From: Escherichia coli
GTDB taxonomy: Bacteria; Pseudomonadota; Gammaproteobacteria; Enterobacterales; Enterobacteriaceae
Strand: one strand, 5' to 3'
DNA length: 64,000 bases
Assembly (NCBI RefSeq): GCF_016903815.1
Contig: NZ_CP069973.1
The notes beneath the pieces were generated by a model. It saw nothing but the letters and a program-made list of their open reading frames with translations, searched no databases and was not told the DNA's origin. How positions within the stretch are numbered: position 1 is the stretch's first letter; every line of letters starts with the position of its first letter. The translations under genes and the position numbers were made by a program. This document shows, in pieces, positions 50,090 through 52,835 of the stretch.

Positions 50090-50653
50090 TTATTCATTGA
50101 TCAGTTTCTGCGCCAACGCAATGACATGATCTACCTCTTCCGGCGTCAGGCTGCCGTCCTTTGCCCACTGAATTTGCCCGGCTTTATTCAGCACCAGAAT
50201 GGTTGAACTCTGCTCCGGCAAGCGCCAGGCAACGCGTCCCTGTCCATTGCCGTCAATAACGAATTGCGCCCACGGATAGCGGCGTTTATTTTTTTCGATT
50301 TTGCCAACAACAAAATAGCCAGTACCAAAGATGGCATCATCGGTGTTCACAATGGTGGTGGGCTGAAAACGATCCTGCGGAAAGTTTGCCGCTTCAACCG
50401 CTTTAATTAACAGTGAGTTCTTTTTCTTCGCCGACTTACGCCCGGCGATATACTGAATAATGCGGACTTTTCCCGCTAATTGTGTGCTGTTCCACTTTTG
50501 GTAGTGAATTTCGTCGTCGCTATTCAGAAGCAGCTCGCCGCCTTCCTGGATATAAACAGGGGTAACCGTTTTGCCAGTGACGAAATTGTGTGCCTGCACA
50601 CCCGGGGCTAAGAGCATGATAATCAACGCAATAATCAAACGAGATGACATCAT
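50090..50653 (-). CDS. YtfJ-family-like periplasmic protein
   Basis: 187 aa ORF with signal peptide (MMSSRLIIALIIMLLAPGVQA); family assignment from recollection of YtfJ-like proteins, not verified. Confidence 0.6.
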   Translation of the reverse strand: MMSSRLIIALIIMLLAPGVQAHNFVTGKTVTPVYIQEGGELLLNSDDEIHYQKWNSTQLAGKVRIIQYIAGRKSAKKKNSLLIKAVEAANFPQDRFQPTTIVNTDDAIFGTGYFVVGKIEKNKRRYPWAQFVIDGNGQGRVAWRLPEQSSTILVLNKAGQIQWAKDGSLTPEEVDHVIALAQKLINE

Positions 50654-50661
50654 TGCTCCGG

Positions 50662-51486
50662 CTATAGCGGAAAACGCGAAATCAGCAGCTCTAAGCGCTG
50701 ACGAATATCGCTATCCAGCGCCACCGGTGCATCATACGACTGGCGGTTTTCCATATCATCCGCCACCATGTCGTCGTGTTTATCTCCCATCAGGCCATTA
50801 ATGGCGGCGAGGAAGCGGGATATCTGTAACGCCTCTTTATTTTCAGGATCAAGCGATCTTAAGGTGTCGTAATAAGAAACCTGCTGGCTGATGATTTTTC
50901 GCACATCATGAAATTCCCTACCGGTTAGTCGCGGTTTGGCAATAATCTCTTTCAGGGTATGCATTTGCTTTTGCCGATAGGCAATAAAACTGCTTACGCT
51001 TTCTAACTGGCTATGGCGTAATGAATAGTTCACCAACGACCAGACCGGAGAGCTTAAATAAATCCGTAACAGGTTGCCGTAATACGACACAATATTTTTC
51101 TTACCGTTACGAAAGCCGTCCTGAAAACGCCCCAGAAAAACGGTCGTTTTGCCGAATAAAAATCCGGCCTGATGCTTCTTTAAATACAGCCGTTGCGCAA
51201 AACGCAGGTGCTTGTAGCGCGCTCGCATGTATTTAAATTGTTTGCGCTCATCAGCAGTCAGCTCATCGCCTTTGGCTTGTTTGCGAACTAAACGCAGTAA
51301 CTCCTGACGATCAACGCCATTGAGCCAGAATTGCAGGCATAACGCGTAATTATCATGAATGATTTCGGTGGTACAACTTAGTGCAATAGTCGGCGGCAAA
51401 CTAACCTGTGCATCAACGACATCATCTTCTTCAATCGCAACAAATAGACGCTCGCTCGCCTCAAGCGGGAAATATTTTCTCATCAT
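50662..51486 (-). CDS. Hypothetical cytoplasmic protein
   Basis: 274 aa ORF with no signal peptide or TM segment; 1-bp junction with yghQ suggests co-transcription; no recognisable motif. Confidence 0.6.
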   Translation of the reverse strand: MMRKYFPLEASERLFVAIEEDDVVDAQVSLPPTIALSCTTEIIHDNYALCLQFWLNGVDRQELLRLVRKQAKGDELTADERKQFKYMRARYKHLRFAQRLYLKKHQAGFLFGKTTVFLGRFQDGFRNGKKNIVSYYGNLLRIYLSSPVWSLVNYSLRHSQLESVSSFIAYRQKQMHTLKEIIAKPRLTGREFHDVRKIISQQVSYYDTLRSLDPENKEALQISRFLAAINGLMGDKHDDMVADDMENRQSYDAPVALDSDIRQRLELLISRFPL

Positions 51487-52835
51487 CAGGATTTCTCTCC
51501 GGCTGCGTTATAAAGCAAGGAATGGCGCTGAAAAAATGCCTTTAAGGTTGGAATTAACGAGAGCGCCACGTCCAGACATTGCCCACCGAAGTAAGCAAAC
51601 GCTGCTCCCAGCACACCAAACAGATGACAGAACATGAACAGCAATACGATGTAGCCGATTGAGGCGATGGTTTGCGCCACGAGAAAAGCGCGCTGTTTTC
51701 CCGCCATCAATAGCAATGACTCCTGAGGGAAGCCCAGCATCGAAATCACAATTGCGCCCAGCATCACCTGAATCAGGTCATACGCTTCGAGATACTTAAC
51801 GCCAAACACCAGCGAAATGAGCGGCTTGCCGACGATCAACACCGCGAGCGCCACCAGAATACCGATTCCGCCCGCCAGTAAACCGGACTTCACACCTAAC
51901 AACCACGGTCTGGTGGTGCGCGGATCTAAACGCATCACCTCTGGGTAAAAACTTTTACCCAGCAAACCCGCTGGCGTTCCGGCGGCGTCGAAGAATGTCA
52001 TGGCGATTTTAAATAACCCGGCGGCAGCGGGTCCTAACACGATCCCCACCAACACTGTGCTGCACGAGTTACGCGCCGACCAGATGGAGTGGGCAATGTT
52101 GGTTGACCAGACAAAACTCCACGCGCCTTTAATGTGTCGGGCAGACTCAAACAGATTCAATTTGAAGGCGTTATGGATATTTCGGCGGCGTAATTCGCGC
52201 GCGGCAAACCACCAGTACATGGTGCCGCCAACCAGATTCGACACGTACCAGGCAATAACAAAACCCGCAAAACCAAAGTCAAAATACCAGGCTACGACGC
52301 TCCCCGCTGCGCGCAGAAAAGGTTTCGTCGCCTGCTGTACAGCAATTAAATCGAAGCGATCTACCGCACGCAGAATGCCGGTCGGCGTGGAGGAAGCCAT
52401 TGAAGGAATGAGCGTGCAATAGAGCGCTGCCAGCCAAAAACTTTGGTCATCCAGACCTAATGAATGGGAAAGGAATGGCAGTAAGGCAATGCCACCGACA
52501 ATCGCCACCGCGCCGCTGACGATATCCAGCGAGAAGGAAAATGAGACGACATTGCGGAATTGCTGCGGATTATTGTTGGTTAATGCTGGTGTTCCGTACT
52601 GAACCACCAGTTGCCATGTCTGAAACTTAATAAAATCGCTGATCGACTTGGCGTACGATTGCACAATCACCAGTACGCCAAACATGGCGGGCGTCATCCC
52701 TTTACCGGCACACGAGAGCGCCAACAGACCCAGCAAGGCGCTCACGACATTACTGGAGCCTAACCAGGCGCTATTGCGAATAATGGTGCGAAACGCGCCA
52801 TCTGCAAACCAATGTTTGATGTTAAAACCCGCCAA
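51486..52835 (-). CDS. yghQ: MOP-superfamily (Wzx/MurJ-like) lipid-linked substrate flippase
   Basis: 449 aa polytopic membrane protein; polysaccharide-biosynthesis-protein-like. Confidence 0.8.
   Translation of the reverse strand: MAGFNIKHWFADGAFRTIIRNSAWLGSSNVVSALLGLLALSCAGKGMTPAMFGVLVIVQSYAKSISDFIKFQTWQLVVQYGTPALTNNNPQQFRNVVSFSFSLDIVSGAVAIVGGIALLPFLSHSLGLDDQSFWLAALYCTLIPSMASSTPTGILRAVDRFDLIAVQQATKPFLRAAGSVVAWYFDFGFAGFVIAWYVSNLVGGTMYWWFAARELRRRNIHNAFKLNLFESARHIKGAWSFVWSTNIAHSIWSARNSCSTVLVGIVLGPAAAGLFKIAMTFFDAAGTPAGLLGKSFYPEVMRLDPRTTRPWLLGVKSGLLAGGIGILVALAVLIVGKPLISLVFGVKYLEAYDLIQVMLGAIVISMLGFPQESLLLMAGKQRAFLVAQTIASIGYIVLLFMFCHLFGVLGAAFAYFGGQCLDVALSLIPTLKAFFQRHSLLYNAAGEKS

Follow-up and report, generated by a model that had tools for sequence, protein, structure and literature searches.

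The ytfJ2, CHAD-like, and yghQ genes of the Escherichia coli sphingolipid island and their conserved kinase partners

Among the described bacterial sphingolipid loci, the closest to the one analyzed here is that of Caulobacter crescentus (CC_1152-CC_1168), which combines the ceramide synthesis genes spt, acpR, cerR, aasR, and cerS with the cpg head-group genes and with the genes for LptF2, LptG2, LptC2, and CC_1166. The LptF and LptG paralogs encoded at this locus are essential only when an anionic sphingolipid is made; by genetic evidence, sphingolipid export depends on them, and they associate with each other in a complex as well as with the housekeeping ATPase LptB (10.64898/2026.04.12.717747). 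CC_1166, a Polysacc_synt-family protein (IPR002797) whose gene adjoins aasR, has been proposed to be a flippase (PMC11324152 S1 Text), and no bacterial sphingolipid flippase has been identified so far, according to the Klein laboratory (PMC11087976). As for E. coli, AasR, AcpR, and Spt of E. coli B are biochemically active, and the five ceramide genes are clustered in E. coli BL21 (PMC9386255); a 2026 preprint has drawn the E. coli UTI89 locus alongside that of Caulobacter and remarked on LptF2/G2 in gammaproteobacterial loci (10.64898/2026.04.12.717747). The present analysis concerns the same type of locus in E. coli contig NZ_CP069973.1 (assembly GCF_016903815.1), within a 64,000-nucleotide stretch hereafter referred to as the window, and particularly three of its genes at positions 50090 to 52835: ytfJ2, encoding a periplasmic YtfJ-like protein; the gene for a hypothetical protein of 274 amino acids (aa), hereafter the CHAD-like gene; and yghQ, encoding a polytopic membrane protein.

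All three genes very probably belong functionally to the sphingolipid island. Their most constant partners are the genes for the P-loop kinases YghR, YghS, and YghT, which, together with YghQ and the CHAD-like protein, form the conserved core of this system across Proteobacteria. Sphingolipid synthesis loci with Lpt-like export are already known as a locus type, and the E. coli example is in print. Within the searchable literature, four points appear to be undescribed: the predicted CHAD-fold identity of the 274-aa protein, the kinase-CHAD-YghQ module common to sphingolipid-producing Proteobacteria, the nature of YtfJ2, and the contrast to the cpg-type head-group genes of Caulobacter. That literature contained no treatment of the ytfJ-like gene, the CHAD-like gene, or yghQRST as sphingolipid genes and no paper combining “CHAD domain” with “sphingolipid.”

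The five ceramide synthesis genes are common to the Caulobacter and E. coli loci, and the presence of Spt, AcpR, AasR, CerR, and the bacterial ceramide synthase (bCerS) YghO in one neighborhood identifies the latter as a Rhodobacteria-type sphingolipid locus. Both loci also encode an LptF/LptG paralog pair without an LptB of its own and a Polysacc_synt-family membrane protein adjoining the synthesis genes, although CC_1166 and YghQ can be likened by family only. Unlike Caulobacter, E. coli has no cpgA-D, no ceramide kinase (LCB5-type) genes, no LptC2, and no CC_1167 at this locus; it has instead the YghR/S/T kinases, the CHAD-like protein, and YtfJ2.

Gene organization of the island

The island comprises 13 genes: a codirectional run of seven (yghS, yghR, yghQ, the CHAD-like gene, ytfJ2, lptF2, and lptG2), together with yghT, yghO, and the aasR-cerR-acpR-spt operon. 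Its features in the window are as follows.

54560..55252, plus strand: yghT, open reading frame (ORF) for a P-loop kinase paralog with a predicted thymidylate kinase fold, divergent from yghS; a conserved neighbor of the CHAD-like gene in most taxa
53673..54386, minus strand: yghS, P-loop kinase paralog, probably the first gene of the run
52881..53641, minus strand: yghR, P-loop kinase paralog, a frameshifted pseudogene in this strain
51486..52835, minus strand: yghQ, divergent inner-membrane protein of the MOP/Polysacc_synt family (449 aa), candidate sphingolipid flippase, TTG start
50662..51486, minus strand: CHAD-like gene (UniProt name Ybl138), cytoplasmic 274-aa protein with a predicted divergent CHAD fold
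50090..50653, minus strand: ytfJ2, secreted YtfJ-family protein with a predicted cysteine-free thioredoxin fold
48989..50059, minus strand: lptF2, LptF paralog, putative sphingolipid-type extractor permease (TIGR04407, 318 bits)
47913..48992, minus strand: lptG2, LptG paralog (TIGR04408, 309 bits); PGAP start, the longest ORF reaching 49073
47881..47915, unstranded: hairpin with a 16-pair stem (10 G-C), putative bidirectional terminator common to lptG2 and spt
43827..47878, plus strand: aasR-cerR-acpR-spt operon for 3-oxo-sphinganine and ceramide synthesis (NCBIfam Spt 599 bits, cut-off 500; FAAL 878 bits; ACP and SDR matches)
42275..43417, minus strand: yghO (aca), bacterial ceramide synthase/N-acyltransferase, assigned as aca from PMC9386255

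A preliminary description of this stretch, made from the sequence alone, had recognized five minus-strand genes, from yghQ to the second permease gene, running head to tail with overlapping or nearly abutting junctions. All five are found at their expected positions. The stop codon of yghQ overlaps the start of the CHAD-like gene by 1 nucleotide (nt) (TGATG), the CHAD-like gene and ytfJ2 are separated by 8 nt that include GGAG, the gap between ytfJ2 and lptF2 is 30 nt, and lptF2 shares 4 nt (ATGA) with lptG2. However, yghQ is not the first gene of the run, which continues 5′ on the same strand with yghR (45-nt gap) and yghS (31-nt gap), giving seven genes; and the three genes said to lie downstream of the LptFG-like pair are in fact upstream of it in the direction of transcription. 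The only strong hairpin of the run lies 3′ of lptG2, between this gene and the convergent spt. The shared strand, the short or overlapping junctions (−1, 8, 30, and −4 nt), the lack of an internal terminator, and the conserved gene order are those of a predicted operon, and identical adjacencies with short gaps are seen again in dozens of species. A promoter-like site near yghS (54464-54436, minus strand) is a consensus match only. Across the region, 13 promoter-like sites were found versus 13.7 expected in shuffled sequence, which is no excess. No Rfam RNAs were found between 42.5 and 55.5 kb.

The ytfJ2, CHAD-like, and yghQ ORFs are all intact and full-length, and their dN/dS ratios relative to E. 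whittamii (0.12, 0.08, and 0.03, respectively) point to purifying selection. Their conserved adjacency and dN/dS values go well beyond chance expectation.

Conservation of the island and its core

One genome from each of 100,044 species was scanned with the CHAD-like family motif [IL]NGLMGxxHD, which yielded 122 confirmed loci, of which 80 were kept; with a peptide pattern of this kind, a genome that gives no match may still carry the gene. The kept loci were then searched by tblastn with the 13 cluster proteins of E. coli, and neighbors were counted within 10 kb. In 74 of the 80 loci, the CHAD-like gene is accompanied by one or more YghR/S/T-type genes, most often two or three, and in 62 yghQ lies immediately upstream of it on the same strand. 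The constant partners of the 274-aa protein and YghQ are the kinases and not LptFG, contrary to the functional unit chosen in the preliminary description.

In the Enterobacterales (41 species), ytfJ2 is present at all loci, lptF2/G2 at 40, and spt within 10 kb at 36; the shortfalls in spt and lptF2/G2 arise because those loci are cut by contig ends. The 13-gene set occurs here in three arrangements, represented by E. coli, Serratia, and Sodalis/Rosenbergiella. In the Sodalis-type order, ytfJ2 follows spt directly, and lptF2G2 and yghQ diverge from each other. This persistence of the whole set across 41 species supports the suggested functional tie of the genes to the Spt-like operon. In five of the six Xanthomonadales loci (Luteibacter, Rhodanobacter, and Dyella), the order is yghS-yghR-aasR-cerR-acpR-spt-yghQ-CHAD-like on one strand, so that the ceramide operon is embedded inside the kinase-YghQ-CHAD-like module. 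The 19 Sphingomonadales loci show the order (yghS/R)-yghT-yghQ-CHAD-like, and loci of the Acetobacter type consist of a kinase gene, the CHAD-like gene, and another kinase gene. No further neighbors are conserved across groups outside the Enterobacterales; those seen are mostly antisense shadow ORFs and genes of a generic kind for a histidine kinase, RND efflux proteins, and a glycosyltransferase. YtfJ2 and LptF2G2 are add-ons to the module that were encountered in the Enterobacterales alone. One genome labeled as alphaproteobacterial, “Martelella alba” BGMRC 2031 (NZ_SZPQ01000026.1), carries an Enterobacterales-type cluster in a Serratia-like order with 60 to 78% aa identity to that of E. coli; it looks like a misassigned or contaminated assembly or a recent horizontal transfer.

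The distribution outside the Enterobacterales bears on the leading alternative, namely that yghRST, yghQ, and the CHAD-like gene form an independent system, e.g., for export of an undecaprenyl-linked glycan or a phosphate-rich polymer, that merely neighbors the sphingolipid genes in Enterobacterales. MOP/Polysacc_synt proteins normally flip undecaprenyl-PP-linked glycans, and the module lies apart from spt in the 19 Sphingomonadales loci and in 6 loci of the Acetobacteraceae, where the link rests on the taxa that carry the module. Such a separation is expected in Sphingomonadales because the sphingolipid genes are scattered there (PMC9386255; PMC11324152), as the synthesis genes also are in Acetobacteraceae genomes, and the taxa of the named CHAD-like family members carry the Rhodobacteria-type Spt (taxa according to PMC9386255). 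Moreover, no glycosyltransferase, polymerase, or undecaprenyl phosphate-priming enzyme is conserved beside the module; the spt operon is embedded in it in Xanthomonadales; and the linkage has outlasted the three rearrangements in Enterobacterales. All this makes an independent export system unlikely, despite the PGAP annotation of YghQ as “lipopolysaccharide biosynthesis protein” and the retention of yghRST in E. coli K-12 after loss of the rest of the island.

Among 5,426 complete E. coli genomes, the spt operon was found in 4,067, the lptG2-yghQ segment (at ≥80% coverage) in 4,091, and the ytfJ2/CHAD-like region in 4,114. Together with the linkage seen across species, these nearly equal counts make the phylogenetic profile against the Spt-like operon a positive one, with the co-occurrence of YtfJ2 limited to Enterobacterales. 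The island is thus kept in ∼76% of complete E. coli genomes, as well as in at least 40 enterobacterial species. Genomes of the K-12 type have the island deleted and keep, besides yghRST, only the part corresponding to positions 51767-52900, i.e., the first 356 codons of yghQ. Positions 47900-52900 of the window are 100% identical to strain 7/2. In yghR, a 2-bp CG insertion (53340-53341) relative to that strain splits the gene into ORFs of 102 and 155 aa, and PGAP marks yghR of strain 222 as “frameshifted.” In the strain analyzed here, two of the kinases may thus be enough, or else the module does not function fully. Individual E. coli strains (hits H8, H16, and H24) have IS1 inserted in lptF2, the spt operon, or the ytfJ2/CHAD-like region.

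Such lesions, together with the loss of the island from K-12 and ∼24% of genomes without obvious harm, could mean that the island in this strain is a decaying, largely silent remnant and that the three genes are without consequence here. This explanation is quite improbable in view of the intact state and low dN/dS values of the three genes, the wide retention of the island, and the activity of AasR, AcpR, and Spt from E. coli B (PMC9386255).

Predicted functions of the encoded proteins

YtfJ2 is a member of the YtfJ_HI0045 family (PF09695/TIGR01626; 212 bits against a cut-off of 151, and 2e-59 for PF09695), with a length in the ∼185-aa range of that family and 54% identity to the housekeeping YtfJ of K-12 (b4216). 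It is a second copy of YtfJ tied to the sphingolipid cluster, just as LptF2/G2 are second copies of LptF/G. The previously noted signal peptide, of the Sec type, is evident in the sequence (MMSSRLIIALIIMLLAPGVQA, with the boundary before HNF). The predicted fold is that of thioredoxin, which on the level of the fold alone is shared with TlpA, ResA, and DsbE, but YtfJ2 differs from these oxidoreductases by having no CXXC motif and no cysteine at all, with no conserved Cys among 25 orthologs; the CXXC position is occupied by the conserved basic motif AGRxSAKKKN (AGRxSAK in the 25 orthologs). Hence, YtfJ2 is not expected to be an oxidoreductase. Sequence searches of PDB returned nothing useful. 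An Lpt-type periplasmic factor with an OstA-like β-jellyroll, another candidate considered for this protein, is ruled out by the predicted thioredoxin fold.

The fold and the location might also suggest that YtfJ2 serves not transport but the ceramide reductase CerR, as a periplasmic redox partner delivering reducing power. The Caulobacter CerR is periplasmic, with its reductant unidentified (PMC11087976), and the position of ytfJ2 in Sodalis-type loci, directly downstream of spt in the aasR-cerR-acpR-spt direction, would fit such a partnership. The absence of cysteines and of any detected cofactor motif, as well as the presence of the paralogous housekeeping YtfJ in K-12, which has no cerR, make it very improbable. 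The K-12 ytfJ gene (positions 8709-9263 of locus L091) encodes the same AGRxSAK motif as the cluster copy and also lacks CXXC, and its promoter is recognized by the envelope stress factor σE, alongside that of lpxP (PMC4447067); the two observations hint at a possible part of all YtfJ-family proteins in the lipid biology of the outer membrane.

The 274-aa protein had been described as having no recognizable motif, which is correct only for a plain Pfam scan. The E. coli protein matched no Pfam family, neither it nor 15 of its close homologs gave a match to CHAD, NCBIfam yielded no family for it or for its fused relatives, and a PDB profile search with the family returned nothing useful. No signal peptide or transmembrane segment was found. 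Homologs of the protein are numerous. The modeled structure is all-helical, with the two four-helix bundles of a CHAD fold, and its best structural matches are polyphosphate-binding CHAD domains, including those of PptA and Ricinus. Foldseek searches of AFDB50 retrieved homologs with 26 to 41% identity that are named “CHAD domain-containing protein” in UniProt and come from Sphingomonas, Zymomonas, Acetobacter, Komagataeibacter, Gluconobacter, Commensalibacter, and Pseudomonas veronii. When the Pfam CHAD model (PF05235) was applied singly to 58 family members, 12 matched at E ≤ 0.1 and one at 2.5e-5, and a fusion protein (P0240) has a precomputed CHAD match marked as “faint.” Residues R88, G119, D123, H193, R196, G234, H237, and D238 are invariant in these 58 sequences, and K92, R95, H105, and K197 are nearly so (≥90%); judging from the alignment, this His/Arg/Lys set is the pattern to be expected in a “conserved histidine alpha-helical domain.” The 274-aa protein is accordingly predicted to have a divergent CHAD fold, a fold type that binds phosphate or polyphosphate. 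Inorganic polyphosphate is the ligand of CHAD domains, which often occur in fusions with triphosphate-tunnel enzymes.

The family is small, with 280 clusters (at 50% identity) found at E ≤ 1e-3 in a profile search of 1.84 billion representative proteins. Among remote members (P0122, P0220, P0234, and P0240), the domain occurs as a double repeat and in fusions with an N-terminal APH/choline-kinase domain, in some cases in both forms at once. Some remote members bear signal peptides, the contigs that carry such remote or kinase-fused proteins being short, and in Luteibacter (L040 and L047) the CHAD-like gene is tandemly duplicated. Compared with the known CHAD proteins (PF05235; Ricinus 6qv5, Streptomyces PptA 6rn5, and the C-terminal domain of E. 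coli YgiF), the E. coli protein has no CYTH partner and no polyphosphate-metabolism neighbors, and it is coupled to P-loop kinases and a MOP-type membrane protein in sphingolipid-making bacteria. That it might simply be a CHAD protein of polyphosphate granules (phosin) and play no part in lipid processes, as its best structural matches could imply, is extremely unlikely, considering its place outside Pfam CHAD by sequence, the translationally coupled junction of its gene with yghQ, its constant adjacency to the kinases and YghQ, and the absence of conserved ppk, ppx, or CYTH genes nearby. An LptC/LptA-type factor of the OstA/β-jellyroll kind was likewise considered and ruled out for this all-helical protein with no signal peptide.

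YghR, YghS, and YghT are paralogs with an invariant GxDGxGK Walker A motif and the motifs DR(F/Y)PQ and RKPDH. Their profile matches thymidylate kinases in PDB (3hjn, 5e-8) in two stretches split by a family-specific insertion, which precedes a conserved segment that is arginine-rich and in part hydrophobic. Since their matches to the NCBIfam dTMP kinase model are weak and far below the cut-off, they are not expected to be true Tmk enzymes, and the RefSeq label “dTMP kinase” of YghS and YghT is probably an over-call. As only thymidylate kinases were matched, there was no support for PPK2-type polyphosphate kinases, an identity that would have suited a CHAD partner. A Caulobacter-type ceramide kinase was also rejected, as these proteins are unlike CpgB, an enzyme of the LCB5/diacylglycerol kinase type (PMC10331486). 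An anti-phage defense system was considered as well and rejected, the PADLOC matches being P-loop-only at E > 2e-4.

In 13 enterobacterial species (L003, L014, L017, L022, L025, L030, L037 to L039, L041 to L043, and L046), the cluster includes a DgkA-like (DAGK_prokar) gene; the hosts are Sodalis, Rosenbergiella, Pantoea coffeiphila, Erwinia sp., Serratia sp. M24T3, and metagenome-assembled genomes (MAGs), and in L003 this gene (17823-18182) is situated between yghO and yghR. In vitro, ceramide is a substrate of E. coli DgkA. The APH/choline-kinase fusions and the DgkA-like neighbor tie the CHAD-like family to phosphotransfer.

YghQ matches Pfam PF01943 (Polysacc_synt) at 1.1e-8 in its N-terminal half and only at 0.063 in the C-terminal half. 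A crude hydropathy scan gave at least nine hydrophobic segments; members of the MOP family typically have 12 to 14 helices in two lobes. Against the NCBIfam model of WzxC-type MOP flippases (PRK10459), YghQ scored 33.8 bits over residues 18 to 435, with a cut-off of 273, and neither sequence nor profile searches of PDB gave a match. Because of this subthreshold score and the lack of a PDB profile match, YghQ is classed here as a distant MOP relative and not a curated member of the family. The weak full-length similarity (residues 18 to 435), the polytopic character, and the length of ∼450 aa are shared with Wzx, MurJ, and WzxC, but YghQ falls far below the family cut-offs, has no glycan synthesis neighbors, and has a presumed substrate that is ceramide-based rather than undecaprenyl-PP-linked. 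A flippase role is plausible, and the chances that YghQ is the sphingolipid flippase appear evenly balanced. Its RefSeq/PGAP name is a likely misannotation. In other genera, the orthologs start with ATG (MKHWF...), whereas in Escherichia this codon is ATC and the gene starts at a TTG six codons upstream of the lost ATG (52818-52835), with AGG five bases before the TTG.

Identity to the K-12 housekeeping LptF and LptG is only 29% for LptF2 and 28% for LptG2, respectively; both nevertheless exceed the equivalog hidden Markov model cut-offs of these families. They match LptF and LptG of the LptB2FGC extractor in length and domain order and differ in the low identity to the housekeeping pair, the lack of an LptB or LptC gene in the cluster, and the presumed substrate, a sphingolipid. 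The RefSeq/PGAP label “LPS export ABC transporter permease LptF/LptG” at positions 47913-50059 is likely a systematic misannotation. The proposal that an LptFG-like extractor sits beside a lipid synthesis operon is borne out by the Caulobacter counterpart LptF2G2 (10.64898/2026.04.12.717747).

Proposed lipid route and the wider window

These assignments can be combined into a route of five steps. Spt, AcpR, AasR, and YghO would make (oxo)ceramide at the cytoplasmic face, in line with the activities shown for E. coli B and Caulobacter enzymes. YghR/S/T and the cytoplasmic CHAD-fold protein may then phosphorylate or otherwise activate the lipid head group, as suggested by the folds, the kinase fusions, the DgkA neighbor, and the constant adjacency of the genes. 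YghQ, by its family and position and by analogy with the CC_1166 proposal, would flip the lipid to the periplasmic leaflet, where YtfJ2 might handle an anionic head group or assist the periplasmic hand-over, the weakest of the five assignments. Finally, LptF2G2, powered by the housekeeping LptB, would extract the lipid toward the outer membrane, as their counterparts do in Caulobacter. This route is not self-contained, contrary to the complete synthesis-to-surface path envisaged earlier, because the cluster holds no copy of LptB, LptC, LptA, or LptDE; the island includes neither an LptB ATPase nor any LptC/A/D/E-type bridge or outer-membrane component.

As a whole, the five-step route is the best explanation of the data and is moderately probable, with its parts differing in strength. 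Action of the CHAD-like protein and the kinases on the lipid head group is possible without being probable, and the periplasmic role of YtfJ2 is tentative and rather doubtful. Several observations weigh against the route. In the searchable literature, isolation of a sphingolipid from E. coli is nowhere reported. The yghR frameshift in this strain and the IS1 insertions in others mean that the module may be partly dispensable. In the Sphingomonadales and Acetobacteraceae, the module lies apart from spt, and yghQ is not close by in the Acetobacter-type loci and most of the mixed “other/MAG” loci, which do have the kinases and the CHAD-like gene. To these add the silence of Pfam and NCBIfam on the 274-aa protein, the low WzxC-model score of YghQ and its lack of PDB matches, and the result of hhalign, in which the 58-sequence CHAD-like profile found no match in E. 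coli YgiF (probability 0.4%), a single-sequence target making for a weak test.

A more specific version of the route can be envisaged, in which YghR/S/T and the CHAD-like protein would assemble a head group of pyro- or oligophosphate on ceramide and keep it bound. Following DgkA-type formation of ceramide-1-phosphate, phosphate-to-phosphate transfer of the NMP kinase type would yield a lipid-PP(P) product, which YghQ would flip as Wzx and MurJ flip their undecaprenyl-PP-linked substrates, YtfJ2 would bind by its anionic head group in the periplasm, and LptB2F2G2 would export to the outer membrane. This version is decidedly unlikely; if it is true, E. coli and its relatives would possess an anionic sphingolipid of a new class, and a flippase system for bacterial sphingolipids would have been identified for the first time.

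The kinase-CHAD-YghQ module, found in Enterobacterales, Xanthomonadales, Sphingomonadales, and Acetobacteraceae, can be nominated for the missing head-group and flipping step of bacterial sphingolipid biogenesis. Predicted folds are now assigned for two “hypothetical” proteins encoded in about three-quarters of E. coli genomes, including BL21 and uropathogenic strains, and the question of what flips and decorates bacterial sphingolipids is narrowed to a few genes in a genetically easy organism.

The window as a whole has the order kps capsule locus, gsp type II secretion system (T2SS), glc, yghO...yghQRST, pitB, gss, and hyb. Positions 1-15000 hold a group 2 kps capsule locus (kpsF/E/D/U/C/S ... 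kpsT/M), whose AT-rich serotype-specific region (∼7.6 to 14.8 kb, ∼30% G+C) encodes a CDP-glycerol glycerophosphotransferase, a GT29 glycosyltransferase, and a TPR protein. At ≥80%, positions 1-24000 are shared by only 58 of the 5,426 complete E. coli genomes; strain 222 and a few other strains match them at 100% identity. From 15856 to beyond 24000, between the capsule locus and the glc genes, lies the T2SS-β gsp operon (yghD/gspM through gspD).

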